From assembly GCF_056712565.1 (NCBI RefSeq), contig NZ_CM160072.1: a stretch of DNA of 64,000 nt. The stretch is one strand, 5' to 3'. Of the stretch, positions 28,190 through 62,858 are shown in pieces (the first letter of the stretch is position 1; each line of letters begins with the position of its first letter). Made by a program: the position numbers and the translations under genes. The notes beneath the pieces were generated by a model. The model did not search any database and was not told the origin of the DNA. It was given only the letters and a program-made list of their open reading frames with translations.

Positions 28190-28362
28190 AAGAAATCCTT
28201 TCTTAGAGAATTATTGAGGTCCGGTATCATACCGATTGCAATAATGAAATAAGAGCAAACGAAGAAACTTTCAGAATTAGGCCCGGCGGCGCAGAAAATT
28301 TTGCTATTCGCCTCGCAAGAACGGAGAGCCGTCGATTGACACTAAGGGCGGAGTGACATAAT

Positions 28363-28513
28363 TTCAGGAGTGAGGGTAGAGCGGGGTTTCCCCCGCCCTG
28401 GTAGTCTTAGTAAGCTGGCCAGCTAATGACTAAGAGCACCACGATGATGAGTAGCTTCATCATGACCCTTTCCTTATTTAAGGCCCCTTCCTCGGGAGGG
28501 GCTTTCCCGTTTC
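28363..28513 (+). ncRNA. sibA: Sib antisense sRNA, copy 1 (approximate ends)
   Basis: Plus-strand transcript antisense to the ibs ORF, ending at the GC hairpin ggcccc...gggaggggc followed by a short T-run (28481..28513). Confidence 0.45.
28407..28463 (-). CDS. ibsA: Ibs-family type I toxin, 18 aa (MMKLLIIVVLLVISWPAY)
   Basis: Minus-strand ATGATGAAGCTACTCATCATCGTGGTGCTCTTAGTCATTAGCTGGCCAGCTTACTAA, read by hand; too short for the ORF track; A/B assignment is by position only. Confidence 0.7.
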   Translation of the reverse strand: MMKLLIIVVLLVISWPAY

Positions 28514-28690
28514 AGCGTCCCGCTGAAATCTTCGGCTTACCTCCTTTCGCCCTGTATGCAGTCTATCGCTGACTTGCGGATAAAATAGTTTCAAGTGTGA
28601 TTATTGCGTAACGACTCGCAAAGAATATTTGCTGGCAGGATCGCAGACTGCAAAGTCTGCGGATTGACAATTGGACCGTGAAGGCATACT

Positions 28691-28841
28691 TTCAGGAGTG
28701 AGGGTAGAGCGGGGTTTCCCCCGCCCTGGTAGTCTTAGTATGCTGGGTAGCTAATGACTAAGAGCACCACGATGATGAGTATCTTCATCATGACCCTTTC
28801 CTTATTTAAGGCCCCTTCCTCGGGAGGGGCTTTTCCGTTTC
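28691..28841 (+). ncRNA. sibB: Sib antisense sRNA, copy 2 (approximate ends)
   Basis: Second repeat unit; same hairpin terminator at 28809..28841. Confidence 0.45.
28735..28791 (-). CDS. ibsB: Ibs-family type I toxin, 18 aa (MMKILIIVVLLVISYPAY)
   Basis: Minus-strand small ORF within second repeat unit, read by hand. Confidence 0.7.
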   Translation of the reverse strand: MMKILIIVVLLVISYPAY

Positions 28842-28998: not shown

Positions 28999-29016
28999 TT
29001 TTTCTCCCTTATTGGC
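28999..29016 (+). promoter_or_regulatory. BaeR box upstream of mdtA (tttttctcccttattggc)
   Basis: Matches the BaeR consensus TTTTTCTCCATDATTGGC as I recall it, ~55 nt upstream of the mdtA start. Confidence 0.6.
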
Positions 29017-40571: not shown

Positions 40572-40606
40572 GCCGGGCGTAGGTTGTTGGCGTCCGGCTT
40601 TATATC
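40572..40606 (+). terminator. Putative intrinsic terminator after yegP
   Basis: Imperfect GC hairpin gccgggcg...cgtccggc followed by tttatatc. Confidence 0.4.
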
Positions 40607-40688
40607 AAAATAACGCTTATTTATTGATAATTAAGATTAACCTCCGTCATTAAAATAATGAGTAAATAAGTTTCAGTATCAGAATTTA

Positions 40689-41303
40689 TCACGCCCCACA
40701 ATCACCAATCTGATCCACCACCGTCAGATACCAGTCACTGTCATAACTGTAAAGTTGACTTAAATAAAATACCAGTCCATCGTTACTCTCTTCTGGCGCA
40801 GCGACCACACGCACGGCCCCGTATTCCATTCGACGCGCTGCGGCAATCTGCGCATCAGAAATAGTATTTTGCGGTGAACCAAACATCTGCGTGAAGACCA
40901 AACTACGGCTGACTTTATGGTGAACATCGCTATTGCTAATAAAATACCCCTGCTTATTCCAGCCACGTTCGCAGTTAAATTTCGGGATAGCTTTCTTATT
41001 AAATTCGTCATCTCGCGGAACATGTTCCCCTGCCGAGGGCCATGGGAAATACTCGGGAACAGGTTGCCTGAAATTAATTTGCTTAAGATTTTCAACATCC
41101 ATCGAAGCACCACGGTGGAAAAGAACATACAAACCCGTTTTTTTATCAATTAACGAGTTGATTAATTGGGCATCTTCTTGCTGAAAGCCCATAATCACCT
41201 TTCTGGCTGTTTCCTCCAGCGTACACCCGGCATTGGCGGGTAAAGAAAAGAATATCAGCCCCACCAGCATCATTCCTTTTTTTAACATCAGCATTGTTTG
41301 CAT
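40689..41303 (-). CDS. Accessory island gene A: secreted/periplasmic protein of unknown function (signal peptide, AXA-type cleavage site ANA-G)
   Basis: 204-aa ORF MQTMLMLKKGMMLVGLIFFSLPANAGC; last gene of a four-gene minus-strand operon; no family recognised. Confidence 0.55.
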   Translation of the reverse strand: MQTMLMLKKGMMLVGLIFFSLPANAGCTLEETARKVIMGFQQEDAQLINSLIDKKTGLYVLFHRGASMDVENLKQINFRQPVPEYFPWPSAGEHVPRDDEFNKKAIPKFNCERGWNKQGYFISNSDVHHKVSRSLVFTQMFGSPQNTISDAQIAAARRMEYGAVRVVAAPEESNDGLVFYLSQLYSYDSDWYLTVVDQIGDCGA

Positions 41304-41354
41304 CTTCTCATCATGGGGCTCATATTACACATTTAACAATTTTCAGGATAAACC

Positions 41355-43463
41355 TTACACCATACTGTTAACCTGGCCGGGTAATTCGCTAGCTGGAATA
41401 CGAAAGGTATACCAGGCATAACGACAGCGTTTCCACAGGCTGGAGAAATGGAGATGATAAAGGCAATCTGCAATAATTTCGTTATCTGGATATAAAGACT
41501 CGGCAAAATGTGTCCAGCGCGCACTGAGTTTCATGTTAAACAGTTTTTCATCTTCTTTGTTACCATACAGGCGCGACAAAGTAATCATTGCTTCGAGCGT
41601 ACCTTTATTCGCTTCTTCTTGTACCTGTTGGAGGTGCAAATGAGCAAGTGAGAGTTCTTTCACCTCAAAGATATTAAGTAAAAAAAGCCCCCATGCTTTT
41701 TCATGTCCAGCTTCATGAGCCAGAAATAAATTGTCAAGGAGATTTTTTTCATAAATAGCCCGTGTTTCTTTAGAAATTTCTTGTTTATTTAGTGCCTGGT
41801 AGCAGATAGCAATGCTAAAATAAATATTTTGTAGATCTTGTTGATGTTCGCTATAACCATAATTTTTTACCAGTGGATAAGATACCGAGCTATGGAAATT
41901 TAGGTCATCTTGAAGTATTTTAAGTGCCCGTCGAAAATACTCCAAAGCTGTAGATGGTTCATAAGGTAATTTTGTATTGTCTTCCTTATCCAAATATTCA
42001 AGAGCAACTAAATTTAATGCGGCAGGAATATTTCTTTGCTTACCAATTGTCGCAAGCGGAATGAAATAATCAGAAAGGTCAAACCAACTCAAATCTTTTA
42101 TTGCCGACCGCCAATTATGATTGTATTTAATGTCACTAGCTTTTTCCAGCCAAGCATCGCCCTGCCCTTCATCTTTTTCAAAACCCAAAATACCCTCTCG
42201 CTGGAAAAACCCCCTATAAATAACAGGTGTAGCATAAGTTGTATTCTGTGAATTTTGGCAGATAAAATTATATATCCAGAATGAATCTGGATAATAACTT
42301 AATGCAAATTTTATCGCGTACGCAGTGTAATAATTATTGAGCTTCATGTCTTCCATCACCGCTCGCTGTATACAGCACCACAACTTATCGTGATCGTTCT
42401 GCTTGTTATAGCAGGCAAGTAACCACTCTAGGGCATTATGGCGACATTCCTGAAATTGTGCGTACTGAGCAATATTCTCTGCTAAGTCGATTGCATATTG
42501 TTGCTCCTCGGGCGCAATGTCCTCAATGCTGACATCTCGGTAATCATCCCACCAAAGTAAGAGATCCATATAGTCATGTTCTTCGGTAGATAAGTGCTTA
42601 CAGGTTACTGAATCCAGCAATTCGGAAATTTCTTTATGCGACCCTCCCCAGCGTGGCATTCGAAATGGTATATATTCAACAAAAGGATAAAAAGTGTGAG
42701 GAAAAATAGTCAGGCAAACAGAAAGCCAATATTTTTGCCCACCATCATCATCATACTCAGGAAGTATATTGGGGCGAGGCAAAACGGGGCATATTGCATG
42801 CTCAAACGAAAGTCCGGAATACGCCATCAACGCTTCCACTTCTTGCGGGGAGCGGCGGTGATAATTTTTCAGTGCGATCATTAATGGTATTCCTGCGACA
42901 CTATCACCGTTAAGGTGTGCCGCCAGCCAGGCTGGCTGACCAAATACTTTTGAGTTGGTGCTGGTAAGTAATGCAGCCATCCATTGTCGTGGGTCACAAT
43001 CAATTGCTTTAAGTGTAGCGATGACCATTTGTTCATTACATGCACCAGCACAAAGCCACATTGCATGTGTGGTATCATTTGCCCAGCCATAACTGCGATA
43101 TAACCATGCACGGTGATTCCAGTATTGTGCTTCGGCAAGCCAGGCATGTGTAGAATGAGGTCTTGCTTGCTGCCAGGTTTTAATGAGTCTTAAACCTTCT
43201 GTTCCGGCATCAACTAGCGTGTTCATATCATAAAAATAGTTGCACATTTGGGTCCAGGATAAAAAATAGCGCTTTTCAGCCTGACGAGAAGTGAAACTCT
43301 CCTGTAATACCTGGTTATAAATTTCATCTAGTTCCTGATAACGTTTTTCTTGTAACATATAAGGAATATTTGCGATTTGCCATTTTCTCTCAAGAGTATT
43401 AAGTGGCATTTTTTGGTCACACATCTTTTGCATTGCACTGAGTAAACGAGCATCCTGTTCCAT
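41355..43463 (-). CDS. Accessory island gene B: large (~700 aa) Trp/Tyr-rich cytoplasmic protein of unknown function, possibly helical-repeat
   Basis: ORF 41355..43502; start set at MEQDARLLSAMQKM, which has an AAGGA Shine-Dalgarno and leaves a 10-nt gap after gene C; no family confidently recognised. Confidence 0.55.
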   Translation of the reverse strand: MEQDARLLSAMQKMCDQKMPLNTLERKWQIANIPYMLQEKRYQELDEIYNQVLQESFTSRQAEKRYFLSWTQMCNYFYDMNTLVDAGTEGLRLIKTWQQARPHSTHAWLAEAQYWNHRAWLYRSYGWANDTTHAMWLCAGACNEQMVIATLKAIDCDPRQWMAALLTSTNSKVFGQPAWLAAHLNGDSVAGIPLMIALKNYHRRSPQEVEALMAYSGLSFEHAICPVLPRPNILPEYDDDGGQKYWLSVCLTIFPHTFYPFVEYIPFRMPRWGGSHKEISELLDSVTCKHLSTEEHDYMDLLLWWDDYRDVSIEDIAPEEQQYAIDLAENIAQYAQFQECRHNALEWLLACYNKQNDHDKLWCCIQRAVMEDMKLNNYYTAYAIKFALSYYPDSFWIYNFICQNSQNTTYATPVIYRGFFQREGILGFEKDEGQGDAWLEKASDIKYNHNWRSAIKDLSWFDLSDYFIPLATIGKQRNIPAALNLVALEYLDKEDNTKLPYEPSTALEYFRRALKILQDDLNFHSSVSYPLVKNYGYSEHQQDLQNIYFSIAICYQALNKQEISKETRAIYEKNLLDNLFLAHEAGHEKAWGLFLLNIFEVKELSLAHLHLQQVQEEANKGTLEAMITLSRLYGNKEDEKLFNMKLSARWTHFAESLYPDNEIIADCLYHLHFSSLWKRCRYAWYTFRIPASELPGQVNSMV

Positions 43464-43473
43464 AGATATCCTT

Positions 43474-44190
43474 TTAATTAGGTTCAAAAATTTTAAATTC
43501 ATTCCACGGCAATTTTTTCCAGTTACTGGATGGATCTTTCAACCATGCAGTGACTTCCTTTAAATCACGGTTCGCAGTGGCGACGGGGGTATCGTATATC
43601 ATTAACCATTTTTGTCGGGCGCGAACATAAGCACTGGCATAATCTTCCCATGAAGCGAAACAATCTTGTGCTCTTTGAGCATTCAGTAATAACACTATCC
43701 AGGCCTGGTTTTCATCGCACCAGCCTAAACCGGCGATGCAACGAGTTAAAAAAGCAGTGCGCATACAGTCAAACGCCAGCCCATCCAGAACCTGGCCTTG
43801 TGCTGCCAGTTGTTCGTAAAAATCATGTGGAGAATTACCAAGCCCTGTAGCCCAGCGCTGTAATATAACGCCAATTTGTTGACGGAAATCTTCGTTGCTT
43901 TGGTAAGTTTCTGTTCCTAGCTCTTGTTTAACCTGTAGTGCAAGTTGTTGACGCTTATCATCAGTCAACTTTAAATCTAACGTGAAGCCATTTACTGACA
44001 GTCCATTACGACGAGCAACTATATCACCAATTGCTAATGCCCACTTACGTCTCTTTGTTGCTCGTCTTTTGTCCTTGATTAGATCCTTTTCTTTTTCTTT
44101 AGCAATAAAAGCATCGATTTGTGGTTTGTTTTTTTTGTATCTATAGATAAAAATAAATATTGCGACCAGGAGAACAATGATAAGACTCAT
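43474..44190 (-). CDS. Accessory island gene C: single-pass membrane-anchored protein of unknown function (possibly DUF1266-like, unverified)
   Basis: 238-aa ORF; N-terminal TM helix MSLIIVLLVAIFIFIY then soluble domain; start ATG shares one base with gene D stop (TAATG). Confidence 0.55.
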   Translation of the reverse strand: MSLIIVLLVAIFIFIYRYKKNKPQIDAFIAKEKEKDLIKDKRRATKRRKWALAIGDIVARRNGLSVNGFTLDLKLTDDKRQQLALQVKQELGTETYQSNEDFRQQIGVILQRWATGLGNSPHDFYEQLAAQGQVLDGLAFDCMRTAFLTRCIAGLGWCDENQAWIVLLLNAQRAQDCFASWEDYASAYVRARQKWLMIYDTPVATANRDLKEVTAWLKDPSSNWKKLPWNEFKIFEPN

Positions 44191-45404
44191 TATTTTTCAA
44201 CCTCTGACAGGGGTAAGTAATGAGATGTCTGTAATGTCAAACTCTCTATCTCAAAGGAAATGTTGCTGATATTTTGACCTGCAAATTGCGGATGCCACTC
44301 AGCGCCAGGGAATAACATTTCCGCAGAAGTAGCAACTATAGGGTCAATAGCATTAAGATAATGTAACTTATCAGGTGCGCTGTGTAACAGTAACCACTGC
44401 AACTCCACTGAAGGATTTGTAAAATGTTCTAATAAATGAAAGTTATTATGTAGTACGCTTAGTAAAAAACTGGTTTCGTATACTTCCGTTACATATTTCC
44501 ACCCCTGATATTCAGGTGTATTTTCATAAACAATACCCATACCTTCACAATCACTATGTCGAACTGCTTGTGGTGATAATAGTTGCAAAAGAGACAAAAC
44601 ATCGTCCGCATATTTTTTAACTGGATGACGATTTTGCTTACCTTTTATTTGATCAATTTCAAGTGAATCACCAACAACATTGAGAGCAATAGTAACATGA
44701 GGAATATTATTATTATCACGCAAACTGAATAACCGTAATTTATGTTGCTCAATTTGATTTGCATAATACTCACCATAACCACCGGTAAGATTTTTTCGAT
44801 CATCAAACTGGCCTACGCAATGTTGCATATGCCATGATTCATAAGCCATTTCACGACGAAGGTTCGAATGACTGGCATCAAACTCAACAATTTTTCCGTC
44901 TGGCACATCAAGTATTGACTTTACAGTATTTTGTTCACTCGGCTGCCACCCTTTCTCGCGTCGTTGAAGCATCTTTTCATGCTCTTCTTCACGCATTCTG
45001 AACGCAACGTAGCAGGTTATGCGCTGTAGTTTTGATTCCAGACGGGTACCACATTTCCTGGAAAGAAATTCCACCAACTCCCGTTCTTTGGTTAATATTT
45101 GTTGATGATCGGTTTCGATATAATAAAGTGTCGCAGTTGATACTGAGGCAGTATTAAACTTCGATACCAGCCATTCCGGGATTACATCATCATTTTTATT
45201 AAACAGTGAATATTCTGCAAGCGAGTTAATTTGTTGCACCATTGGAAAGTCACTAATTAGCCATCGATAAAAATGGTTGAGTAACCATTTTTGGATGGTC
45301 TCATTATCCTGGCGAAACAGACTTCTTTGCAAAATTGCTGTTTTTACTTCCGGGGCATTAATTACATCCCTTGCATTATAATTCTGGTGAATATTTCCAG
45401 TCAT
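44190..45404 (-). CDS. Accessory island gene D: 404-aa cytoplasmic protein of unknown function (possible PcfJ-like domain around WHMQHCVGQ; unverified)
   Basis: First gene of the operon; AT-rich codon usage; motif ESWHMQHCVGQFDDRKNLTGGYGEYYANQ. Confidence 0.55.
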   Translation of the reverse strand: MTGNIHQNYNARDVINAPEVKTAILQRSLFRQDNETIQKWLLNHFYRWLISDFPMVQQINSLAEYSLFNKNDDVIPEWLVSKFNTASVSTATLYYIETDHQQILTKERELVEFLSRKCGTRLESKLQRITCYVAFRMREEEHEKMLQRREKGWQPSEQNTVKSILDVPDGKIVEFDASHSNLRREMAYESWHMQHCVGQFDDRKNLTGGYGEYYANQIEQHKLRLFSLRDNNNIPHVTIALNVVGDSLEIDQIKGKQNRHPVKKYADDVLSLLQLLSPQAVRHSDCEGMGIVYENTPEYQGWKYVTEVYETSFLLSVLHNNFHLLEHFTNPSVELQWLLLHSAPDKLHYLNAIDPIVATSAEMLFPGAEWHPQFAGQNISNISFEIESLTLQTSHYLPLSEVEK

Positions 45405-45891
45405 AACATCCGCCCGTGTTTATTATATCACTCAAAGCAATAATTGTTGACTATAGATTTTTTATCTAAATCAGCATGGTTGCAGGTACATACTCAAGTA
45501 AGCCACTCAAGAAAATAACGTAAACTCAATAGTGGCAGCGTCACAAACTTTGGAAATTATGTCTTATATTTGCAGTTTATTTTAGTGAATAATTGAGATA
45601 AATGACATTATTTTACATCCTCAATAATTCAGGCTGTAAGAGGACGGCAAATACATTCATAATTATCAGGGGATGAACATTCAGGAAAGTAGTCAGTATC
45701 GTCAACTTTTTCTTTTATCACTACATGAAGATTTCGTGTAGATACTCCCATCTCTGCCACTTCTCCCCTCACATTTACACTGGAGCTAAACCCGCCGATT
45801 GCGCTACAATGCCCGCCCTTAAAGTGGGGGCACTCCCCTAACCGCTTCATCAGGTGAAGCGGCTCTGACCTGTCATCAGAACGAGAGAATT

Positions 45892-47253: not shown

Positions 47254-47397
47254 TTAATTTCGATTATTTTTCCCGGATGGAAAATTCTTAGAAACCGATC
47301 ACATACAGCTGCATTTATTAAGGTTATCATCCGTTTCGCTGAAAAACATAACCCATAAAATGCTAGCTGTACCAGGAACCACCTCCTTAGCCTGTGT

Positions 47398-47424
47398 AAT
47401 CTCCCTTACGCAGGCTTATTTTTT
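47398..47424. mobile_element. Probable P2-type att core at the prophage/host junction
   Basis: Reverse complement aaaaaataagcctgcgtaagggagatt matches the P2 att core as I recall it at 25 of 27 positions; lies between yegQ and ogr. Confidence 0.4.
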
Positions 47425-47525: not shown

Positions 47526-47744
47526 TTACATCCACATAATTTGCTGCCCTGACGGCAACGGGTGCGGTCTTACGGCGTGGACTTCTCCCGGCTTCACGAT
47601 GTATCGCTGTACCGACTCATAAGTGATGAATGTGGCGCTGCAATTCACGTTCTGACACTGGTGATAACGCTCTTTTGTCGTGTCAGTGATATAGCGGCTT
47701 GTACGCGCATGTGCGGCATGCTGGCATAAAGGACAATGAAACAT
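47526..47744 (-). CDS. ogr: P2 Ogr-like zinc-finger late transcription activator
   Basis: ORF 47526..47807; start set at MFHCPLCQHAAHARTSRYITDTTKERYHQCQNVNCSATF (~72 aa, Cys4 motif). Confidence 0.85.
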   Translation of the reverse strand: MFHCPLCQHAAHARTSRYITDTTKERYHQCQNVNCSATFITYESVQRYIVKPGEVHAVRPHPLPSGQQIMWM

Positions 47745-47825
47745 CGCGAGCACCTCTTCCGGTTTTGTTGATGGTGCTATTTTAGTTAATTTATCCTTAT
47801 AAAACAAATAGATAAAATAAAAACA

Positions 47826-48989
47826 TCACTCATCATCTTCTGTTTCGTACTCCACATCAGAAAGCCTGACCTCAAGCTCCAAGGACGTCGTGAAGCCGCT
47901 ATTATTCAGAAAATGTGTCACCTTAGTGATTGTCCAGTCCTGCTCGTCTATGACGCGCTTAAAGCCTGACACTTTAACCGGTGTTTCCGTGTAAATATCT
48001 GCCCGACCGGTAGCCAGGCTGATGGAGAACTCCGCAACGCCCCGTTGCAGCTTATCCCACTTCGCCTGAGCGGCGCGCATGGCCTGCGCTTTCGTGGCAT
48101 ATACCGCGGTCAGGGCAAAAACATTGTCAGCCTCACCTGCCATGTATTCACCTTCGCGCGCTTCCGGTACTTTTGGCGCTTTCTTCTGCGTGACTGGTTT
48201 CGCTTTCGGGTGCTCCAGTGCGCGCAGGTGTTTCTCTTTCTTTTTGCGTTTCAGTTTTACCTTCTGCTTTTGTGGCTTCGGGTCTTTGGTGTGTAACCAC
48301 TTTGCCGTTACGCCGGTATAGGCTCCACGGTCAGCAATCGCAAAATGATGGCGGTCGCCGTCGCTGCGGGTGATGGTAATCTGCGGGATTTTTTTACCGC
48401 TGGCCGTCACCCCCTGCCCCGCCTTGAGAAACAACAGTTTTCCCATTTTTACCGACACCTCACCGCCGTTGCGTTCAGCAAGGCGGGTCAGGAATTTTGC
48501 ATCAGACTCCTGCGACTGGTCGATGTGCGGGATTTTAATTCCGGCCAGTGACGGAGCGACACTGGCTTCCAGCCTGTTACGGGAGGCTATCGCTTCAACA
48601 ATCGCACCGAGCGTGGTGTCATGCCAGGAGCCTTCACGGCGGGAATTGAGCGTCCCGCGAAAATCTGCACTCCGGGCGCGGATGGTGACCACATCCGGTG
48701 CGCCCCGGTGTTCAACCTCATCAACGGTAAATTTCCCTTTGCATACCAGGGCAAAACCTTTCCAGCCGATATACACCGTCAGGACAGCGCCACGAACCGG
48801 CAGCCCGACCTGCCCGTCGGCATCGTTCAGTTCAATATCAAGCTGGTCAGCCTCAAAGCCCCGGTTATCCGTCAGGGTCATGCTCATCAGACGGTCGCTG
48901 ATATTGCCGGTAATATCCCTGTTGTCGAGCATCAGCATGTAATCCGGCGTCAGCGTACTGCCTGCATCAAATGTCAGTGCATCCAGCAT
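47826..48989 (-). CDS. D: P2 gpD-like late control / tail protein
   Basis: 387-aa ORF MLDALTFDAGSTLTPDYMLMLDNRDITGNISDRL. Confidence 0.9.
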   Translation of the reverse strand: MLDALTFDAGSTLTPDYMLMLDNRDITGNISDRLMSMTLTDNRGFEADQLDIELNDADGQVGLPVRGAVLTVYIGWKGFALVCKGKFTVDEVEHRGAPDVVTIRARSADFRGTLNSRREGSWHDTTLGAIVEAIASRNRLEASVAPSLAGIKIPHIDQSQESDAKFLTRLAERNGGEVSVKMGKLLFLKAGQGVTASGKKIPQITITRSDGDRHHFAIADRGAYTGVTAKWLHTKDPKPQKQKVKLKRKKKEKHLRALEHPKAKPVTQKKAPKVPEAREGEYMAGEADNVFALTAVYATKAQAMRAAQAKWDKLQRGVAEFSISLATGRADIYTETPVKVSGFKRVIDEQDWTITKVTHFLNNSGFTTSLELEVRLSDVEYETEDDE

Positions 48990-49468
48990 TATCCCGCCCC
49001 CGTCATATCCGTGAATTTAGTCGCCATACTGCCAGCCTTACCGATGAGCGATTCTGCCTGTTTACCGATATCGCCATAAAGCGCGGCCAGTGATTCATCA
49101 ACGCGGGTGAGCGACAGCGTAAAATCAATTTTCCGGGGTGTGCCGTCTGCAAAGAAAATACTCCCTGTTTCACTCACCCTGCTGATGACATACATGCCGT
49201 AAATCATGCCGGTGCCATCCAGCAACGGCCACGCCCGGCCTTCCTCAGCCATCAGCCTGAGCGTGGTCATCGTCAGCTTGCCGCCGGTCAGTTCGGGATA
49301 AAGCACACCGGCAAGCGTGATATTTTCCTCGCCAACACCGAGAAACTGAAAGGCATCCCGTTTGCCGATACGGGAATTTGACGCCCAGCGATAATCTGAT
49401 TCACGCTGCATGGTCTGGTGTGGCAGCGTCTGGCGCATAAAAACAAACATACCTAACGCGAGCATCAT
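48989..49468 (-). CDS. U: P2 gpU-like tail protein
   Basis: 159-aa ORF MMLALGMFVFMRQTLPHQTMQRESDYRWASNSRIGKRDAFQF. Confidence 0.9.
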   Translation of the reverse strand: MMLALGMFVFMRQTLPHQTMQRESDYRWASNSRIGKRDAFQFLGVGEENITLAGVLYPELTGGKLTMTTLRLMAEEGRAWPLLDGTGMIYGMYVISRVSETGSIFFADGTPRKIDFTLSLTRVDESLAALYGDIGKQAESLIGKAGSMATKFTDMTGAG

Positions 49469-49482
49469 TTTTCGTCACCTCC

Positions 49483-51930
49483 TTAACCGTCATGCATCAT
49501 GCTGGCACGGGCGCGCGCACGTTTATCCCGCTCGTATTTTTCGAGCGCATCCTGTAACTGGCGGTCAAGCTGTGTCCCCGGCGCAGTACCACCCGTCAGG
49601 CTGATGTGATATTCGTTTTTACTCTGGTCCACATAAGAGCGGCCAGCCGGTGCCGTGACCGGCTGATAAGCCTGATAGCCTGCATAAGAGCTGGTCGCCG
49701 GAATATAACCACCGGTGCCATACGTGGCGGCATGAGTTCTGGCGGCGGTCTGGTCAAGTGTGTCTGACTCTTTGTTGATAACACCGAGTTTTTCCAGTAC
49801 CCAGTCAATACCGCTGCGCAGTTTGTTGAACGCATTAAGCGGCAGCATCAGCGCGTCAGCCAGTGCCTGCCCGAACATGACGCCCGTGTCACGGCAACGG
49901 TTCAGGGTGTCCCGGGTGGCTTTAACCGGAGCAATCAGGTTTGTAAACCACTGCCACGCGGCCTGTAACTTTTCGCCCAGCCAGTCAAACACCGGCTTAA
50001 GTGGCGTGAACAGCTCCCCCACCGGCGCAAATGCCGCTTTCAGCCCTTCAACCACACCGCCAAAGAATGCGCTGACAGGCTCCCAGTATTTACGGATAAG
50101 CAACGCCCCGGCGACAATGGCAGCCACCACGGCCACAACCGGCCAGCTAATCGCCCCGATGGCCGTCATAACAGCACTGCCAACCGTCGTGAAGATTGCC
50201 CCCATTGCGCCTGCTGCCGCGATAATAGCATTGATGCCGGTGATAACCGGCCAGGCTACGAGGCCAATGGCACCAATGATGCCAGTCAGCGCCAGTGCAC
50301 CACCGGCAATTAGGCCAATGGTTAACGCCAGTGATTTGTTTTTCTGGATCCAGCCGTCGAGTTTTAACACATACTTTGTGGCCGTCTGCGTGAGCTTACG
50401 CAGTGCGCCTTCCTGCTGGTCAAACAGGTCAGTCCCCACCGCCTCATAAGCGGACTGAAACTCCTTAAAGTCACCGCCGAGGTTGTCCTGCATGATATTT
50501 ACCAGTTCTGCGGTCTTTCCGTCTGAGGCTTTAAACGCAGCGGTCAGTTTGTCCAGCTTTCCGGTTGAGGCGGCAGTCATCAGCACGGCGGCGGCTGAAC
50601 TGGCCTCCTCCCCGAAAATGGTTTTCATGTATTCAGCCTGCTGGGCAGTACCGAGCCGGTTTTTCTCAAAACTGGCCTGCATTTCTTTCAGAATGGTAAA
50701 TACTGGTCGGGTGTTTCCCTTACTGTCTGAGGTTTTCACACCAAGCTCTTTGAGTGCATCCCATGCTTTTCCCGTCGGTGCCTGCAGGCGGCTTAACACG
50801 GCACGGCTTCCCGTTCCCGCCATTGAACCGGTAATTTTTGCATCATGCAGCGCCCCGACCATTGCGGCTGTTTCTTCAATGCTGACACCGGCATTTTTTG
50901 CCACAGGTGCGGCATAGGTCAGCGCATCGCTCATACCGTCAAAATCGGCGGCGGTTTTGTTCATCGTCATGGAGAGAACATCCCCGATATGAGCGACCTT
51001 ATCGTTTGAAAGCTGAAAGGCGGATTTCATCCCCATCAGCAGGGCGGCGTTTTCTTCCATCGTGCGGCGGTTCGCCAGCGCCATATTCAGCGTGACCGGC
51101 GTTGCCGCCTGAATGGCATCAACATCCCCACCGGCTTTCGCAATGATAATCTGCGCACCGGCAGCATCATCCGCCGAGGCGGCTGTGTTGTCGCCGAGCT
51201 GGCGCGCCTGTTTGCGTAGCGCGGCCATTTCGGCAGAATCTTTTGCCACACCGAGCACGGCCTGTAATTCTGAGTTTTTCTGCGCAAACTCATAACCGGG
51301 CATCAGCAGCTTAACACCGGCCATCGTTCCCGCCGCCGCAATCCCCACACCGGCAGCGCCCACTGAGGCCATATTTCCGGCCAGTTCCTTTCCGGCCTGA
51401 TAACGCTGTTTGACTGCGTTAAGTTTTGCCTGTTGCGCACTGACACGCGCCAGCGCGTCACGCTGCCGGTTAAGCTGGGCGGTGGTTTCACTGATACGGT
51501 TTTTCAGTCCCTGCTCATCATGTGCAAGATTGCGGGTATTAATTCCCACAGCGGCCAGTTCCCGCTGCTGGCGTTTAACGGAATCTGTCAGGCGGTTATA
51601 TTTCGCCTGTAAGTCCTCCGCCGCACGCTTTGCGGATTCCAGCACTTTCGCCTGAGCACGGGTCGGGCGTTCGGTGTTTTTAAACTGTGTGGCAAGGGCT
51701 TCGGCCTGCTGCCGTGCCTTTTCAAGTGCATGACCAGTCACGGCGAGCTGTGCACTGGTCTTGCGGAATCCCTCAATACGGGATGCGTGACCGTTCAGCT
51801 CGCGCAGTGATTTTTGTGTTTCCCGGATATCCCCCGACAGCAACTTACTCGCTGTGCGGATGGATTTAAACGGGCGGGACGCCTGGTCAACAGCCCTGAG
51901 CAATACCTGTAATTTTACATTGTTACTCAT
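49483..51930 (-). CDS. T: P2 gpT-like tail tape measure protein
   Basis: 815-aa ORF, coiled-coil N-terminal half, Gly/Ala-rich hydrophobic segment. Confidence 0.9.
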   Translation of the reverse strand: MSNNVKLQVLLRAVDQASRPFKSIRTASKLLSGDIRETQKSLRELNGHASRIEGFRKTSAQLAVTGHALEKARQQAEALATQFKNTERPTRAQAKVLESAKRAAEDLQAKYNRLTDSVKRQQRELAAVGINTRNLAHDEQGLKNRISETTAQLNRQRDALARVSAQQAKLNAVKQRYQAGKELAGNMASVGAAGVGIAAAGTMAGVKLLMPGYEFAQKNSELQAVLGVAKDSAEMAALRKQARQLGDNTAASADDAAGAQIIIAKAGGDVDAIQAATPVTLNMALANRRTMEENAALLMGMKSAFQLSNDKVAHIGDVLSMTMNKTAADFDGMSDALTYAAPVAKNAGVSIEETAAMVGALHDAKITGSMAGTGSRAVLSRLQAPTGKAWDALKELGVKTSDSKGNTRPVFTILKEMQASFEKNRLGTAQQAEYMKTIFGEEASSAAAVLMTAASTGKLDKLTAAFKASDGKTAELVNIMQDNLGGDFKEFQSAYEAVGTDLFDQQEGALRKLTQTATKYVLKLDGWIQKNKSLALTIGLIAGGALALTGIIGAIGLVAWPVITGINAIIAAAGAMGAIFTTVGSAVMTAIGAISWPVVAVVAAIVAGALLIRKYWEPVSAFFGGVVEGLKAAFAPVGELFTPLKPVFDWLGEKLQAAWQWFTNLIAPVKATRDTLNRCRDTGVMFGQALADALMLPLNAFNKLRSGIDWVLEKLGVINKESDTLDQTAARTHAATYGTGGYIPATSSYAGYQAYQPVTAPAGRSYVDQSKNEYHISLTGGTAPGTQLDRQLQDALEKYERDKRARARASMMHDG

Positions 51931-52350
51931 TCGTGTTTCCGCTTCGCCTGAGCGCCTTTTCGCGCCATGTGATGAGTTCGGTCAGGCTCATGGGATACAG
52001 TTCTGATGGCGGCCAGTGAAATATCACTGCCACATCCGCCATCAGGTCATCGACCGACAGATTTTTCGGAAGCGTCACTGCACCGAGTTCGGCGACAAAA
52101 AACCGACCACCTTACCGGCCAGCGCCACAAGGTCAGGCAGTTCCAGCGCGGCGACTTCCTGCTCGGTCAGCATCGGTGCCGTCATGCGCGGCAGCACCTT
52201 AATCAGTGCATCGACTTCGGAGTTCGCGACCGCAGCCAGACTGACACCGCGCAGCGTCCCGGCATTAGGTTTCATCAGCGTGACCTGTTCGATAACCTGC
52301 TCACCACGCTTGACCGGATTGTCCAGGGTAATCACATTTTCTTTGTTCAT
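51923..52350 (-). CDS. E': P2 gpE+E' fusion made by programmed -1 frameshift at TTTTTTG (52102..52096)
   Basis: The -1 frame stays open for 58 codons past the slippery site (VAELGAVTLPKNL...SGNTNE) and stops at a TAA overlapping the T start (ATGAGTAA). Confidence 0.6.
52075..52350 (-). CDS. E: P2 gpE-like tail assembly chaperone
   Basis: 91-aa ORF MNKENVITLDNPVKRGEQVIEQV; ends just after a TTTTTTG slippery run. Confidence 0.85.
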   Translation of the reverse strand: MNKENVITLDNPVKRGEQVIEQVTLMKPNAGTLRGVSLAAVANSEVDALIKVLPRMTAPMLTEQEVAALELPDLVALAGKVVGFLSPNSVQ

Positions 52351-52406
52351 GGTTTTCTCACTTCTGAATCGGGGTTAACCGGTCAGCCAGGCTGACCGGA
52401 TGAAAA

Positions 52407-52925
52407 TCACAGGCCGATATTGCGGCGGTGTTGCTCCAGCCGGTCGACGCCGTTCACCTTCTCAATCATGTTGATGGTGTCGATTTCGACCAGCTCCTTA
52501 CCGTCCATCGTCAGCCGGAAATAGGTGCAGACCACGGAGATTTTCGACTCGGTGTCTTCTCCCTGTTTGCCCTCGCCGGTGTCGATTTCTTTCTGACGTC
52601 CACGCATGACCACCTCGACGGCCACCGTTTCGCCGGTATCGTCGCGCTGGTAAGAGCCTGCAAAACGAATCGGTACGGAATCCACACCGGTTGCGGCGTA
52701 AAGCTCCCAGATAACCGAATCCGGGAAGCCACCGAGCGACCACTCCATTGACAGCGCATCGTCATCAAGGCCGAGGTCTACCGGTGCGCTGCCGTTCATC
52801 CCCGCACCGCGATAGTTTTCGAGCTTACGGGTCAGTTTTGGTAGCGTGACGGACTTCGCGACGCCCTGATAGCTGTAGCCGTTCAGAAAGACGTTCATTA
52901 ACTTGAGTTTGCGCGGCATTGCCAT
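52407..52925 (-). CDS. FII: P2 gpFII-like tail tube protein
   Basis: 172-aa ORF MAMPRKLKLMNVFLNGYSYQGVAKSV. Confidence 0.9.
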   Translation of the reverse strand: MAMPRKLKLMNVFLNGYSYQGVAKSVTLPKLTRKLENYRGAGMNGSAPVDLGLDDDALSMEWSLGGFPDSVIWELYAATGVDSVPIRFAGSYQRDDTGETVAVEVVMRGRQKEIDTGEGKQGEDTESKISVVCTYFRLTMDGKELVEIDTINMIEKVNGVDRLEQHRRNIGL

Positions 52926-54130
52926 CGGTCAGGCTCCTTATAATTGCTGTTAACCGAGGTGACCAGATTTGCCAGGTATTTATCGGTAATACGCTGGCGC
53001 AGGGTCAGGTTTTCAAGAGGAGGCACCGGTGTATAGTCGTAGTCGATATACAGTTTTCCGGCCTTGAGGGTTTCCGCATCGTTGGATTCTTCGCTGAACC
53101 AGCAGGTCGCATCCACGATATAGCCGTTTGTTTTCAGCTCACGGAATTTGGCATTGATGCCGTCAACGATGTCGCGAATCAGCGTTGCGGTGATGGGCTT
53201 GTCCACCGCCCACATGTGCGCCTCAGCCATCGTGTCAGCCAGTACCTGCGCGGTGCGGGTGTAGTTTTCAAAGAGGAACAGCGGGTCATCAGAGCAGGTA
53301 CGGTTACCCCAGAATCGGAAACCGTCGCGGCGAATCAGCGTAGTGACGCCTGACTCGTTAAGCAGGTCAGCATCGGTGCCGGACTCCTGCAAATCCCAGA
53401 ATACAGATGCGCTGATGCCGGTAACACCGTTTACCCCGACGTTGGACAGCGTTTTATGCCAGCCCTGCTCCTGGTCGATTTTAGCGCGCAGACCCAGCGC
53501 ACGGGCGGTGGCATACGCGGTAGCGGTGGTACTGGTGACCGTATCCCATGCGAGGAAATCCGGCCAGATGACCATCAGCTCACGCTGGCTGAAATTCTGG
53601 CGGTAGGCTTTCACCTCGGAAATGGTCTTACAGCCCCATGCGCTGATATATCCGAAAGCGCGCAGCTTCTGACAGACGGATGCCAGTGCAACAGCCACCT
53701 CTTTGGTATCCAGTCCCGGCACACCGAGAATACGCGGTTTAACACCGGTTACCGACTCCGCCGCCAGCAGGGCTTTTAGTCCGGTGTACTGACCGTTTTC
53801 GTCGGTGGTGCCGATGATATTGGAAACGGTCTGCGCGAGTTTCGTTTCCTCGTCATCACCGGTGCAGTCTTCCACGCGCACGACAACGGTGACCGGTTTT
53901 GACTGGTCAGCGATGGCCTGCAACGATGCCGCCAGCGTGCCTTTTTTACCGGCCTTTGCAATTGCGCTTTGCACATTGGTAATCAGCACCGGTTTATTGA
54001 GGGGGAAGGTTTCCGCATCCGCATCGCTGGCCGTGCAGACCATGCCGACAATGGCAGTGGATACGGTGGAAATGACGCGGGTGCCGTCGTTAATCTCCAG
54101 CACCTGCACGCCATGATGATAGTCACTCAT
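52898..54130 (-). CDS. FI: P2 gpFI-like tail sheath protein
   Basis: 410-aa ORF MSDYHHGVQVLEINDGTRVISTVSTAIVGMV. Confidence 0.9.
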   Translation of the reverse strand: MSDYHHGVQVLEINDGTRVISTVSTAIVGMVCTASDADAETFPLNKPVLITNVQSAIAKAGKKGTLAASLQAIADQSKPVTVVVRVEDCTGDDEETKLAQTVSNIIGTTDENGQYTGLKALLAAESVTGVKPRILGVPGLDTKEVAVALASVCQKLRAFGYISAWGCKTISEVKAYRQNFSQRELMVIWPDFLAWDTVTSTTATAYATARALGLRAKIDQEQGWHKTLSNVGVNGVTGISASVFWDLQESGTDADLLNESGVTTLIRRDGFRFWGNRTCSDDPLFLFENYTRTAQVLADTMAEAHMWAVDKPITATLIRDIVDGINAKFRELKTNGYIVDATCWFSEESNDAETLKAGKLYIDYDYTPVPPLENLTLRQRITDKYLANLVTSVNSNYKEPDRWQCRANSS

Positions 54131-54220
54131 CCGTTTAACTCCGTGGTTAATGGGTACAACTATTTTCTGTTGTGCAGAGCATAAGACGCTATTTGACCTG
54201 GCTGGTCAGTGGATGAAACA

Positions 54221-54253
54221 ACAGATAAAGAAAAGGCGGGCAATTCGCCCGCC
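54221..54253 (-). terminator. Intrinsic terminator on the minus strand, upstream of the FI promoter region
   Basis: Hairpin ggcgggc-aatt-cgcccgcc with a T-rich tract on the minus strand (ttttctttatctg). Confidence 0.55.
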
Positions 54254-54316
54254 TGTCCTGATTTGTACTCACTCATTTTCCGCCTGACAATTTACATAGC
54301 CCAAATGCTATCAAAC

Positions 54317-54334
54317 CTGACAGTCTGCTTTGAG
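54317..54334 (+). repeat. Copy 1 of ~16-bp motif CTGACAGTCTGSTYTG (ctgacagtctgctttgag)
   Basis: Shares a 13-mer with copy 3 and an 11-mer with copy 2. Confidence 0.7.
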
Positions 54335-54460
54335 CGAAAAGTGGACATTAGAGTTACAAAAGCAAGTTTAAATCATCCAAAATATTACAATGTCCTTATC
54401 TATCTGATATCGTTATGATAAAAAGCTCCTGAATATAATCGATAGTAGGTGGTTATTTCC

Positions 54461-54838
54461 ATGAAATCAATTTTAGAGGTCTTTACTCAAGGAAATACTA
54501 AAGAAAAACTGGCTGTTATCGCCGATCTCACAACCATTGCGGGAATATCGATTGCAACTATTATTGCTGGTTTGTTAACCCTAGTTGCAAAAACAGATAA
54601 ACTAGATGTTGGAAATCTGTTTGGAGTTGTCATAATATCTCTGCTCGGATTGGCTGGTGTTTGCTGTTTTGTGGCCTTATTTATTTGGGTTATAACCCAA
54701 ATGTCTAAACCATGGGGAACACCTCGGGGGGTTCAGCCCTTAGTTAAGTGTGCTATTTCCCTTATCTTTATCTGTATGTTTTTGCTGGCTGTCTTTACAT
54801 TTTATGAGTTTATTTCTTCGATGAGCATACGCTATTGA
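54461..54838 (+). CDS. Small three-TM-helix membrane protein of unknown function (prophage cargo)
   Basis: ORF 54449..54838; ATG at 54461 (MKSILEVFTQGN); three hydrophobic helices; AT-rich; convergent with the recombinase gene. Confidence 0.5.
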   Translation: MKSILEVFTQGNTKEKLAVIADLTTIAGISIATIIAGLLTLVAKTDKLDVGNLFGVVIISLLGLAGVCCFVALFIWVITQMSKPWGTPRGVQPLVKCAISLIFICMFLLAVFTFYEFISSMSIRY

Positions 54839-54860
54839 ATATAAAATCAGCCCCCATAAC

Positions 54861-55547
54861 TTAAAAGAGACCTTCTATATCGACTTCAATGCCCAAATAA
54901 CGGACTGTGCTTTCCAGTTTCTTATGGCCCAACAGAAGTTGGATCACCCGGAGACTCTTGGTTTTCTTGTAGATTAAGTAAGGTTTTGTTCTTCTCATGG
55001 AATGTGTGCTGTACAGCGAATCTTCGAGACCAAGCTTTTCTACCCACCCATGAAAAATTCGGTTGTATTGCCGGGTTGATATATGGTGGTTAGTTCCGAC
55101 CCGAGAGCGGAACAGGAAGCCTTTACTATGCCAGTTGCCGAGCTTTATCAATGCAGTAACCGCTTCCCTTGTCCCTTTGGTTATCTCAAATTGGACAGGG
55201 CTGCCGGTTTTCTGTTGCAACACCGTTGCTCTGCTTGAGACAGAACTGCCATATGCAGCATCTGATACTTTGAGTTTGACCAAATCACAGCCCCGTAGCT
55301 TAGTGTCCAAAGCCATGTTGAACAGAGCTAGATCGCGTGTTTTACCTTCCAACTCAAGTCTAATCCGGATCCCCCAGATATGAAATATCTGAAGTGGCCT
55401 TTTTTGACCGATGGTACGGTCTTTATTCCACGGTGACGTTTTCATATTCAAATCTCCTGCAATGTGGGAGATTTGAGTATGGTTGTCTCTCAAGAGCGAA
55501 AATAAGTCAACTATCACTAGTTGTTGCGCATGTACGTATTCTGTCAA
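54861..55547 (-). CDS. Short tyrosine-type site-specific recombinase (catalytic domain with only ~50-aa N-terminal extension)
   Basis: 228-aa ORF with the tyrosine-recombinase motif series: R in DTKLRGCDL, HSMRRT (H-x-x-R), LLGH, Y in TVRYLG; starts 4 nt after the stop of the upstream 280-aa gene. Confidence 0.6.
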   Translation of the reverse strand: MTEYVHAQQLVIVDLFSLLRDNHTQISHIAGDLNMKTSPWNKDRTIGQKRPLQIFHIWGIRIRLELEGKTRDLALFNMALDTKLRGCDLVKLKVSDAAYGSSVSSRATVLQQKTGSPVQFEITKGTREAVTALIKLGNWHSKGFLFRSRVGTNHHISTRQYNRIFHGWVEKLGLEDSLYSTHSMRRTKPYLIYKKTKSLRVIQLLLGHKKLESTVRYLGIEVDIEGLF

Positions 55548-56291
55548 TTAATTATTGACAATCATCAATTCTGGAATGATCAAAATCATCATATCGAATT
55601 ATAGTCTGGTTGACTGTATCTATTGTTGGTGTCATTTCTGTTATAATATCCTGATAACCTAAAGAGTTAAATACATTTACTAAGGCCTCACACCGAAGGG
55701 CCGTAGCAATTACAAAATTATAAATTGCCAGCCGTTTATTTTCTTGTTTAACTGCAAGAATGAATTCGATAGCAGTATTTTCATCACTTTGGATTGCATT
55801 ATATAGAGATACTATATTTACCATATCATCAGAGAATGTATGTATTGAATCACAAAGGGGAACGTAATGGGCATGATAGTGTGTTTCCCAGCCAATTAAT
55901 TCAAAAAGTCTTCTGGTTCCTGGATATTCAGGTGTATTTGGCCACAATCTATTAAATAGATCAGTTAGTTCTTTTCCCATGCGAATCCTTTCATTTGCTG
56001 CTGGATTAGTCATTCCTTTGGATTTTAAACACTCCAGCCACCGTTTTCCATTACTATGAACTAATTTCTTACTAGCCTTGAGTAATGCTTGTGCATTTTC
56101 GCCATCATCTATTGCTATATAAAATTGATTGGCAGCCTGTTCTATTATAACCCTAGCTAATACTTCCGATGCTGAAAAGGCTCCTATATTCAAAGAAGAG
56201 ATAGCCTGATTACTAAGTTCATTCAGTACATTAAAGTACTGTAAGACCATCAATTTTTGTTCCACACCCTTTAGGTTGTCTGGATTTGCCC

Positions 56292-57197
56292 CTATATTTC
56301 CAGACACCTGTTATCACTTAACCCATTACTGGCTTGCTGCCGTAGATATTCCCGTGGCGAGCGATAACCCAGTGCACTATGCGGATGCCATTCGTTATAA
56401 TGCTCGAACGCCTCTGCAAGGTTCTTTGCTGCCGTTAACCCGTCTGGTTTGGGCATGACACTGATGTAGTCACGCTTTATCGTTTTCACGAAGCTCTCTG
56501 CTATGCCGTTACTCTCCGGACTCCGCACCGCCGTGCTCTTCGGTTCAAGCCCCAACATCCGGGCAAACTGCCGTGTTTCATTAGCCCGGTAGCATGAACC
56601 ATTATCCGTCAGCCACTCTACTGGAGACGCCGGAAGCTCGTTGCCGAAGCGGCGTTCCACCGCTCCCAGCATGACGTCCTGTACTGTTTCACTGTTGAAG
56701 CCGCCCGTAGTGACCGCCCAGTGCAGTGCCTCACGGTCACAGCAGTCCAGCGCGAACGTGACTCGCAGTTTTTCTCCGTTATCACAGCGGAACTCGAACC
56801 CGTCAGAGCACCATCGCTGATTACTTTCTTTCACAGCCACTCTGCCTGTATGTGCCCGTTTCGATGGCGGTACAGCAGGTTTTCGCTCAAGCAACAGCGC
56901 ATTCTGGCGCATGATCCGGTAAACACGTTTGGCATTGATCGCAGGCATACCATCAAGTTCTGCCTGTCTGCGAAGCAGCGCCCATACCCGACGATAACCA
57001 TACGTGGGCAGCTCTCCGATAACATGGTGTATACGGAGAAGCACATCCGTATCATCAGTGTGACGACTGCGGCGGCCATCCATCCAGTCATCGGTTCGTC
57101 TGAGAATGACGTGCAACTGCGCACGCGACACCCGGAGACAACGGCTGACTAAGCTTACTCCCCATCCCCGGGCAATAAGGGCGCGTGCGCTATCCAC
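56292..57197 (-). CDS. insD: IS2 transposase OrfB (InsD, DDE catalytic domain)
   Basis: 301-aa [41 protein letters not shown]. Confidence 0.9.
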
Positions 57198-57520
57198 TTT
57201 TTTGCCCGTCCATATTCAACGGCTTCTTTGAGGAGTTCATTTTCCATCGTTTTCTTGCCGAGCAGGCGCTGGAGTTCTTTAATCTGCTTCATGGCGGCAG
57301 CAAGTTCAGAGGCAGGAACAACCTGTTCTCCGGCGGCGACAGCAGTAAGACTTCCTTCCTGGTATTGCTTACGCCAGAGAAATAACTGGCTGGCTGCTAC
57401 ACCATGTTGCCGGGCAACGAGGGAGACCGTCATCCCTGGTTCAAAGCTCTGCTGAACAATTGCGATCTTTTCCTGTGTGGTACGCCGTCTGCGTTTCTCC
57501 GGTCCTAAGACATCAATCAT
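57155..57520 (-). CDS. insC: IS2 OrfA (InsC, HTH); fused to OrfB by -1 frameshift in the 57155..57197 overlap
   Basis: ORF 57155..57565; start set at [26 protein letters not shown]. Confidence 0.85.
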
Positions 57521-57768
57521 CTGCTCTCCAATGACTAGTCTAAAAACTAGTATTAAGACTATCACTTAAATAAGTGATATTGGTTGTCTGGAGATTCAGG
57601 GGGCCAGTCTATTGTCTATTTTATTTTTATGCTCCTCAAATTTTGCATGGATATATTTATTTATCGCGGCTATTTTTTTTACATCTTCGTCAAGATCAAA
57701 CGGGCAACGTCCAAACAATTCTTTTTTCATATATTTCTCCTGTTGTACAAGCTTCCATAAGTTGGCAG

Positions 57769-57774
57769 ATTATA
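57769..57774 (-). promoter_or_regulatory. Candidate sigma70 -10 hexamer (TATAAT) ~40 nt upstream of the 280-aa gene start
   Basis: Plus-strand attata at 57769..57774; no clear -35 identified. Confidence 0.3.
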
Positions 57775-57962
57775 CACTGAAGATTACCTATAAATAGCTG
57801 TGCGGGATAGCAGATCAGTGCAAGAAGTACAACCAAGTGAACTGTGCGTATTCAGATACCTGGCCTAACGTTCGCGATAGCCGTCCCCTGCACGAAGCCA
57901 TATATTAGATGTATTAGCTCAGACCTTATCTGACAGGTTGAGTAGGTAGAATCTAATCAAAG

Positions 57963-57980
57963 CTGACAGTCTGGTTTGGA
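57963..57980 (+). repeat. Copy 2 of the motif (ctgacagtctggtttgga), same orientation as copy 1
   Basis: Direct repeat of copy 1; together they bracket the whole cargo module. Confidence 0.7.
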
Positions 57981-58080
57981 CTGTGAGTTCAACCGATGGA
58001 TGCAACACACAGCGATCTACGGACATTACTAGCATAGCTGTGTATTAATCATCGGGAAGCAGGTCAGTCCGCTCCTAGCA

Positions 58081-58096
58081 CAGAGCAGACTGTCAG
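58081..58096 (-). repeat. Copy 3 of the motif, inverted (minus strand reads ctgacagtctgctctg)
   Basis: Inverted relative to copies 1 and 2; 102 bp from copy 2; sits in the loop of a 10-bp perfect stem (58076..58085 with 58108..58117). Confidence 0.7.
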
Positions 58097-58151
58097 ATTA
58101 GGCTTTACTCTGTGCTATAGATACGTTAGCTCACTCCAGAGATCATACAAC

Positions 58152-58679: not shown

Positions 58680-58682
58680 AAA

Positions 58683-61412: not shown

Positions 61413-61422
61413 TGTTTCTCAC

Positions 61423-62854: not shown

Positions 62855-62858
62855 GGTT

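Follow-up and report, generated by a model that had tools for sequence, protein, structure and literature searches.

The window analysed here, a stretch of 64,000 nucleotides (nt) from contig NZ_CM160072.1 of NCBI RefSeq assembly GCF_056712565.1, carries between yegP and yegQ an accessory segment with four intact genes, all on the minus strand and designated D, C, B and A in the order in which they are read. Coordinates are given in window numbering unless a locus handle or another record is named. The gene models combine the list of open reading frames (ORFs) with the RefSeq annotation of the type strain Escherichia coli ATCC 11775, which is identical to the window; junctions and protein features were read off the sequence, and composition was computed per gene and per flank. 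The features of the segment, with protein lengths in amino acids (aa), are as follows.

40599..45800, no strand assigned: accessory segment of 5,202 bp, from the yegP terminator to the yegQ leader, delimited by alignment with the empty and parDE alleles
44190..45404, minus strand: D, a 404-aa cytoplasmic PcfJ-like protein (ORF, Pfam)
43474..44190, minus strand: C, a 238-aa DUF1266 protein (ORF, Pfam)
41355..43463, minus strand: B, a 702-aa cytoplasmic helical-repeat protein; 715 aa if read from the upstream ATG at 43502
40689..41294, minus strand: A, a 201-aa secreted periplasmic protein; 204 aa if read from the ATG at 41303
45422..45450, minus strand: promoter-like site, TCAACA - 17 nt - TG-TATAAT, 18 nt upstream of the D start
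40599..40659, no strand assigned: left end segment, about 61 nt, nearly identical in the parDE allele and absent from the empty allele
45771..45800, no strand assigned: right end segment, 30 nt, ACATTTACACTGGAGCTAAACCCGCCGATT, common to the parDE allele and the A-only allele of Escherichia whittamii and absent from the empty allele

The genes are tightly packed, with the junctions that the original prediction for this locus had described: the stop codon of D and the start codon of C share one base (TAATG), 10 nt separate the C stop from the B start, and the distance from the B stop to the A start is 51 nt for the 204-aa form of A, or 60 nt for the 201-aa form. The promoter-like site upstream of D matches 10 of the 12 consensus positions and has an extended -10 element, as a pattern match in a consensus scan. 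A search for BaeR boxes gave a match only at the mdtA promoter and none near D, and Rfam recognised no RNA family within the segment. The spacer upstream of D (45405-45891, 487 nt) is AT-rich and 95% conserved in Escherichia fergusonii; a 73-aa minus-strand ORF lying in it (45629-45850) is without support and probably spurious.

The content of guanine plus cytosine (GC) of the segment is 0.397, compared with 0.555 in the left flank and 0.543 in the right one, so that the AT-richness predicted from the codon usage is confirmed by computation. The deviation is not uniform along the segment: D, C and B have a GC of 0.38-0.41 and a GC at third codon positions (GC3) of 0.30-0.35, A has values of 0.45 and 0.46, respectively, and baeS, baeR and yegQ lie at 0.53-0.54 and 0.55-0.65.

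In most E. coli genomes yegP and yegQ are direct neighbours, as had been assumed, and in the alignment the segment takes the place of about 21 bp of this empty allele. Among 30 evenly spaced records sampled at the yegP-yegQ junction, 17 have the empty allele, 10 carry the toxin-antitoxin pair parDE, 2 carry the island and 1 matches yegQ only. A further state, with A alone, is present in 7 E. coli genomes of the 5,426 complete genomes on which all prevalence counts reported here are based. The end segments (left, 61 nt; right, 30 nt) occur in the island, in the parDE allele and in the E. whittamii allele with A alone; the parDE insert used for the comparison, from strain 357900 (L003:2174-2768), shares these outermost stretches with the island. 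Neither the ORFs nor the RefSeq annotation contain a gene for an integrase, a transposase or any other recombinase within the segment. Insertion through att-like repeats was considered and rejected, as no direct or inverted repeats flank the segment. Of the traits of a mobile element, the deviant composition and the variable presence are found here, and a recombinase and terminal repeats are missing. The end segments shared across alleles, together with the lack of an integrase and of terminal repeats, indicate that the slot exchanges cargo, probably by homologous recombination through the conserved flanks. On an E. fergusonii-like contig (L019:8637-10037) a 466-aa HEAT-repeat gene lies between A and yegP and represents a fifth cargo state; a HEAT-repeat gene is also found in the Salmonella islet (L011:15870-16736).

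Three of the four products, all of them unrecognised in the original prediction, match Pfam families (PcfJ-like, DUF1266 and DUF4034), and RefSeq labels them likewise. In the case of D, the match to the PcfJ-like family (PF14284, named after pcfJ of the Enterococcus plasmid pCF10) covers residues 141-268 with E = 1.2e-5. This match is weak but consistent, since 14 of the 34 D homologues match the family at E<=1e-3 and 33 of the 34 at E<=0.1. The central domain of D fits the PcfJ-like model, including its His-Cys pair; unlike the family, D has additional conserved N- and C-terminal domains, a chromosomal location and a constant DUF1266 partner. Three motifs are invariant in the D family, namely H195-C196-x-G-Q-F, G208-G-Y-G and Q252-x-K-G-K-Q-N-R-x-P. 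No function for PcfJ was found in the literature, where the search by name is swamped by the Caenorhabditis elegans pCFJ plasmids, and a search by PF accessions returned nothing functional.

The predicted structure of D comprises an N-terminal helical domain, a central alpha/beta domain of GNAT-like topology and a C-terminal helical region, with the invariant His-Cys pair coming after the first helix. The GNAT fold runs in the order strand, two helices, three strands, helix, strand, helix, strand, and the predicted order of strands and helices in D fits it up to the third helix; the similarity is moderate, and the end of the fold deviates. In GNAT enzymes motif A (Q/R-x-x-G-x-G/A), which binds coenzyme A (CoA), is located on the loop before the third helix. 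The invariant QxKGKQNR of D is situated on a strand-to-helix loop (residues 247-262) that corresponds to this position. Foldseek searches with the D model retrieved members of the family, D-DUF1266 fusions and AlphaFold models of PcfJ-like proteins (E about 1e-5), and no annotated enzyme among the AlphaFold models. Searches of PDB sequences with D and with the D-family profile gave no match, nor did PADLOC, NCBIfam or PHROG for D. Because the similarity is moderate, the fold end deviates and a match at the sequence level is absent, we take a GNAT-like transferase as a lead for D and not as an assignment to that family. A DUF4132 protein is a structural neighbour of D at Foldseek rank 30 (E = 3.3e-7); DUF4132 is the domain of YehI/MolR of K-12, whose gene adjoins MoxR- and vWA-type genes. 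This neighbour may point to a wider fold family around the PcfJ-like proteins.

Protein C matches DUF1266 (PF06889) over residues 94-229 (E = 1.1e-18). Its N terminus carries the hydrophobic helix that had been noticed at first reading (residues 1-16), followed by RYKKNK, and the position of this basic stretch implies that the bulk of C should face the cytoplasm. The model of C shows a long stalk helix and an all-alpha globular domain without a neighbour among solved structures; the C-family profile has no match among PDB sequences, and C has none in PADLOC, NCBIfam or PHROG. In the literature, DUF1266 appears in the table entries of one paper only, for another locus.

Protein B, originally described as merely large and soluble, consists of a DUF4034 domain followed by Sel1 repeats, and it is indeed rich in Trp (3.4%) and Tyr (6.3%). 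The match to DUF4034 (PF13226) extends over residues 43-319 and over positions 2-274 of the 274 of the model (E = 1.7e-101), and this part contains the invariant residues W97, R123 and W246 and a P-R-W-G-G motif. The C-terminal half is made of Sel1-like repeats: positions 404-640 of the B-family profile match the Sel1 proteins EsiB (1.9e-36), SEL1L, MotX and HcpC in the PDB, where B as a single sequence finds no match. The family is present in 111 representative clusters in 1.84 billion. In PADLOC, B resembles a candidate system, PDC-S32, at E = 1.3e-3 with no stretch passing the cutoff; NCBIfam and PHROG gave no usable match, and a full-text search of the literature returned nothing for DUF4034.

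The signal peptide predicted for A is present and ends ANA/G, which fits signal peptidase I. A lipoprotein was considered and rejected, the residue after A-x-A-G being C, R, L, H or P among the homologues and position -3 being Asn. As the Cys after ANAG is not conserved, A is best read as a secreted protein and not as a lipoprotein; two other Cys residues are conserved among its homologues. Only 20 homologues were found, almost all in Escherichia, and A has no match in Pfam, NCBIfam, PHROG or PADLOC.

Genera with a homologue of D include Klebsiella, Salmonella, Citrobacter, Buttiauxella, Serratia, Burkholderia, Variovorax, Pseudomonas, Lysobacter and Rhizobium. Of 80 D loci drawn from 100,044 scanned species genomes, 79 have a DUF1266 gene directly after D; the sole exception is at a contig end. 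Lysobacter, Rhizobium and several metagenomic sequences encode D and C as a single fused protein. A fused C cannot be called reliably from stop-to-stop ORFs when the genome is high in GC, and only loci without a hydrophobic segment were counted as true fusions (L010, L015, L056, L062 and L084); the N-terminal anchor of C is conserved in the unfused forms and missing from the true fusions. A third, large repeat protein always adjoins the D-C pair. It is B, encoded after C, in about 30 loci, and a 760-870-aa TPR-containing protein, whose gene ends at the D start, in about 48. Homology between B and the upstream TPR protein of the Pseudomonas-type modules was tried and rejected (hmmsearch negative, hhalign 10.8%). 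No other neighbour is conserved across genera in the 80 loci. A three-gene module, of which D-C-B is the form found in Escherichia, recurs across Proteobacteria, from Alpha- to Gammaproteobacteria.

Both versions of the module, D-C-B and TPR protein-D-C, are found in Serratia sp. DD3 (L020, L054) and in Burkholderia paludis MSh1 (L033, L081). The presence of both in one genome means that they are not mutually exclusive, and the two versions may differ in specificity. Genes for a histidine kinase and a response regulator recur near the module in several lineages, too loosely to count. The D gene of Salmonella is often annotated with 294 aa, although its frame stays open, and the match to the hidden Markov model continues, up to about 399 aa.

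Gene A behaves differently. The original prediction treated the four genes as one dedicated multi-component system, with cytoplasmic, membrane-anchored and secreted parts, and this view holds for D-C-B, a co-inherited module, and not for A. One four-gene system spanning the envelope, with A as its periplasmic part, would agree with the co-orientation and tight packing of the genes, with the lack of a terminator-like site between B and A, with the joint occurrence of the four genes at >=99% identity in 294 E. coli genomes and also in E. fergusonii, and with the fact that B of Salmonella, too, is followed by a secreted protein, albeit a different one. Nevertheless, A is absent from the modules of Klebsiella, Salmonella, Citrobacter, Burkholderia, Lysobacter, Rhizobium and Pseudomonas, and indeed from every module outside Escherichia; in E. 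whittamii it is the sole gene of the yegP-yegQ interval, and 7 E. coli genomes likewise carry A without the other three. Furthermore, A differs from D, C and B in its GC3 (0.46 versus 0.30-0.35), and its identity of 86.6%, as opposed to 95-96%, reflects faster evolution; the secreted protein of Salmonella is not detectably related to it. We consider such a four-gene system quite improbable, and the segment appears instead to be a composite of the D-C-B module and an unrelated A in a chromosomal hotspot. The Salmonella protein (L011:11728-12447; 239 aa, with a signal peptide) is encoded 4 nt after B; BLASTP finds no relation between it and A, although each has a D-C-G motif at or close to the C terminus.

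Of the 5,426 complete E. coli genomes, 304 (about 5.6%) carry the block, in a single copy and always on the chromosome; it is full length in 297 genomes and >=99% identical in 294. Among the carriers are UTI89, CFT073, 536, Nissle 1917, Seattle 1946 and an O18 strain, which we take to be extraintestinal strains of phylogroup B2. With the other alleles empty or occupied by parDE, the four genes are neither universal in E. coli nor housekeeping genes, in agreement with the first reading. D-C-B occupies the interval from baeR to yegQ in Klebsiella, K. oxytoca, Citrobacter, Buttiauxella and Salmonella; there it has the orientation of these two genes, and yegP is missing. Relative to these other enterobacterial genera, the Escherichia block is inverted. 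The GC of the module is host-like in most genera, and AT-rich only in Escherichia and one Klebsiella; outside Escherichia, its neighbours are ordinary metabolic genes. A search of 50,697 phage records did not find D, and no more than 8 records labelled as plasmids carry it, each of them large and non-mobilizable.

Between E. coli and E. fergusonii, the synonymous divergence (dS) of the four genes is 0.06-0.19, as compared with about 0.15 for yegQ and baeR, and the ratio of nonsynonymous to synonymous divergence (dN/dS) is 0.15-0.34, which indicates that all four are under purifying selection. The dS values, which resemble those of the flanks, argue for an old resident and not for a recent insertion. 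The horizontal acquisition suggested by the original prediction is consistent with the foreign-like composition and with the accessory, variable slot, but a recent insertion is contradicted by a divergence from E. fergusonii equal to that of the flanking core genes. We infer that the block is a functional, old resident of the Escherichia lineage that has been lost or replaced in most E. coli. A would already have been resident in the yegP-yegQ spacer, read in the same direction as D-C-B; the block would then have been kept in E. fergusonii and in some E. coli strains, the classic uropathogens among them, and elsewhere would have been lost or would have had parDE put in its place. AT-richness and loss from most E. 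coli lineages are also what one might see in a decaying remnant of old foreign DNA with no present function. This is highly improbable, given the four intact frames in 294 genomes at >=99% identity, the low dN/dS and the conservation of the module, with its invariant motifs, from Alpha- to Gammaproteobacteria.

In the D-C-B module, a role in defence or in toxin/immunity, as originally envisaged, would take the form of an anti-phage or conflict system, in which B senses a protein of the invader and activates D, as an enzyme, and C, as a membrane effector, so that the infection is stopped. The presence of the block in about 5.6% of E. coli, the occupation of the slot by parDE elsewhere, the AT-rich composition in Escherichia and the P2-like prophage adjoining the island would suit such a system. 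So would the exchange of the repeat subunit between two unrelated families, as is seen in defence sensors, and the coexistence of both module types in Serratia sp. DD3 and B. paludis. In addition, the copy of Salmonella Typhi adjoins an islet of proposed orphan immunity genes of type VI secretion and contact-dependent inhibition systems (T6SS/CDI; PMC7400221). This islet, SAIDI-1, has been described at the variable yegQ locus of Salmonella, in a study of which D-C-B was not the subject (PMC7400221); the neighbourhood is the same, with D-C-B located between baeR and SAIDI-1. In Salmonella the module is host-like in GC and co-oriented with baeSR. A literature search with the Salmonella locus tags returned the SAIDI-1 work and a motility-screen table entry for STM2133 only, and one with presumed CFT073 tags gave nothing but nucleotide numbers of rRNA. 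On the other side, PADLOC yields nothing significant and PHROG no match, D is missing from the phage records and confined, among the plasmid-labelled ones, to the 8 large replicons, and outside Escherichia the module has host GC, ordinary metabolic flanks and a stable synteny by baeSR in five enterobacterial genera. Selection on the genes is purifying and not diversifying. On this evidence we consider a conflict system unlikely.

The closest parallel to the module is the hscC cluster of E. coli K-12 (ybeQ-ybeR-djlB and ybeT-ybeU-djlC-hscC), which encodes the specialised Hsp70 HscC and membrane J-proteins. No other E. coli locus combines a Sel1 gene and a DUF1266 gene with a larger third gene overlapping or abutting the DUF1266 gene, and the cluster is also variable, being present in 3,663 of the 5,426 genomes. 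C is homologous to YbeU (hhalign with the C family, probability 91.7%), as is the Sel1-repeat part of B to YbeQ (hhalign with the B family, probability 96.4%). The two loci differ in that the third partner here is PcfJ-like and not a J-domain protein (D versus DjlC, probability 0.4%), in that no Hsp70 gene is recurrently linked to the module, in the reversed gene order, and in B, which has the extra DUF4034 domain and is 2-4x as long as YbeQ or YbeT. The new module thus shares with the hscC cluster the pairing of Sel1 and DUF1266, and lacks the J-domain partner and the linked Hsp70. From the homology of C to YbeU and of B to YbeQ, with D and DjlC unrelated, the Sel1/DUF1266 pair appears to be an adaptor that is reused with different output proteins. 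In the record of ATCC 11775 (3363087-3364549; L103), rihA is directly followed by ybeL, and the cluster found in K-12 (L104:3571-11394) is absent.

This parallel raises the possibility of a non-enzymatic adaptor or proteostasis module, in which the Sel1 and DUF1266 proteins pick a client and D, as a binding or regulatory subunit, replaces the J-domain co-chaperone. The two sets of Sel1, DUF1266 and overlapping downstream partner genes in the K-12 cluster, the hhalign relationships just given and the lack of that cluster in the strain of the window speak for it. Yet D lacks a J domain and does not resemble DjlC, none of the 80 loci reveals a recurrent Hsp70 gene, and the DUF1266 gene is upstream of its partner in K-12 but downstream of D here. 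The invariant His-Cys and the Lys/Arg-rich motif of D moreover suggest catalysis or ligand binding, and we regard a purely adaptor role of the module as improbable.

For the function of the module we offer a hypothesis. D, C and B would assemble into a complex on the inner membrane, on its cytoplasmic side, where B would capture a protein or peptide ligand and D, held by C, would modify it, most likely by acyl or aminoacyl transfer. The layout would resemble that of enzymes in which a TPR auxiliary subunit wraps around the GNAT catalytic subunit. GNAT acyltransferases with a TPR auxiliary subunit include the eukaryotic N-terminal acetyltransferase complexes and Hat1. The resemblance is one of working principle and not of membership: the second half of the D fold deviates, CoA binding by D is putative, no sequence relationship exists, and those complexes have no counterpart of the membrane-anchored DUF1266 partner. 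Several observations weigh against this proposal. The last residue of the CoA motif, Gly or Ala in GNATs, is Gln in D (Q252-I-K-G255-K-Q257), and Pfam scans of D and its 34 homologues find no Acetyltransf family. The true D-C fusions, devoid of a membrane anchor, imply that tethering is not universal, and the patchy presence in E. coli and the hotspot would also suit a conflict system. We therefore put the membrane-associated modifying complex forward tentatively, as an idea somewhat likelier to be wrong than right. A broader formulation, possible but doubtful, is that of an undescribed machine in which a repeat receptor, drawn from two interchangeable families, and a helical partner of new fold, usually anchored, direct a divergent GNAT-like enzyme onto a specific protein of the cell or of an invader; the Sel1/DUF1266 pairs of the HscC cluster would then follow the same logic with a chaperone output.

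Other features of the window lie outside the segment, and most correspond to what is expected of a K-12-type chromosome (CyaR, SibA/SibB, JUMPstart and the BaeR box):

47336-47421: CyaR small RNA, between yegQ and ogrK
28336-28478 and 28664-28806: SibA and SibB antitoxin RNAs, respectively, upstream of mdtA
12744-12782: JUMPstart element
28999-29016: BaeR-box match with one mismatch, in the mdtA promoter region

An apparently complete P2-like prophage occupies 47526-64000, runs past the window (L100) and abuts yegQ, CyaR and ogrK; at this site K-12 presumably keeps only an ogrK-yegZ remnant. Its cargo, at about 54459-56392 between the genes for tail-fibre assembly and tail sheath, comprises genes for a DUF5677 protein, a short tyrosine recombinase and a hypothetical protein. 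P2-like phages often carry defence genes at this position.

All together, our results describe a module that is conserved, uncharacterised and unlike any described system, and whose parts are already catalogued as unstudied domain families. The operon is carried by the much-studied uropathogens CFT073, UTI89 and 536 and by the probiotic Nissle 1917, yet a full-text search found no functional study of it. It constitutes a defined unit for experiments, with an invariant D-C pair that has natural fusions, a swappable repeat partner, candidate catalytic residues and a predicted membrane location, and our results tie it to the DUF1266/Sel1 genes beside hscC in K-12, which are no better explained. 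If the module were a defence system, it would be one missed by current finders; if D is an enzyme, the PcfJ-like family as a whole, common as it is on plasmids and phages, would gain a fold and an activity.

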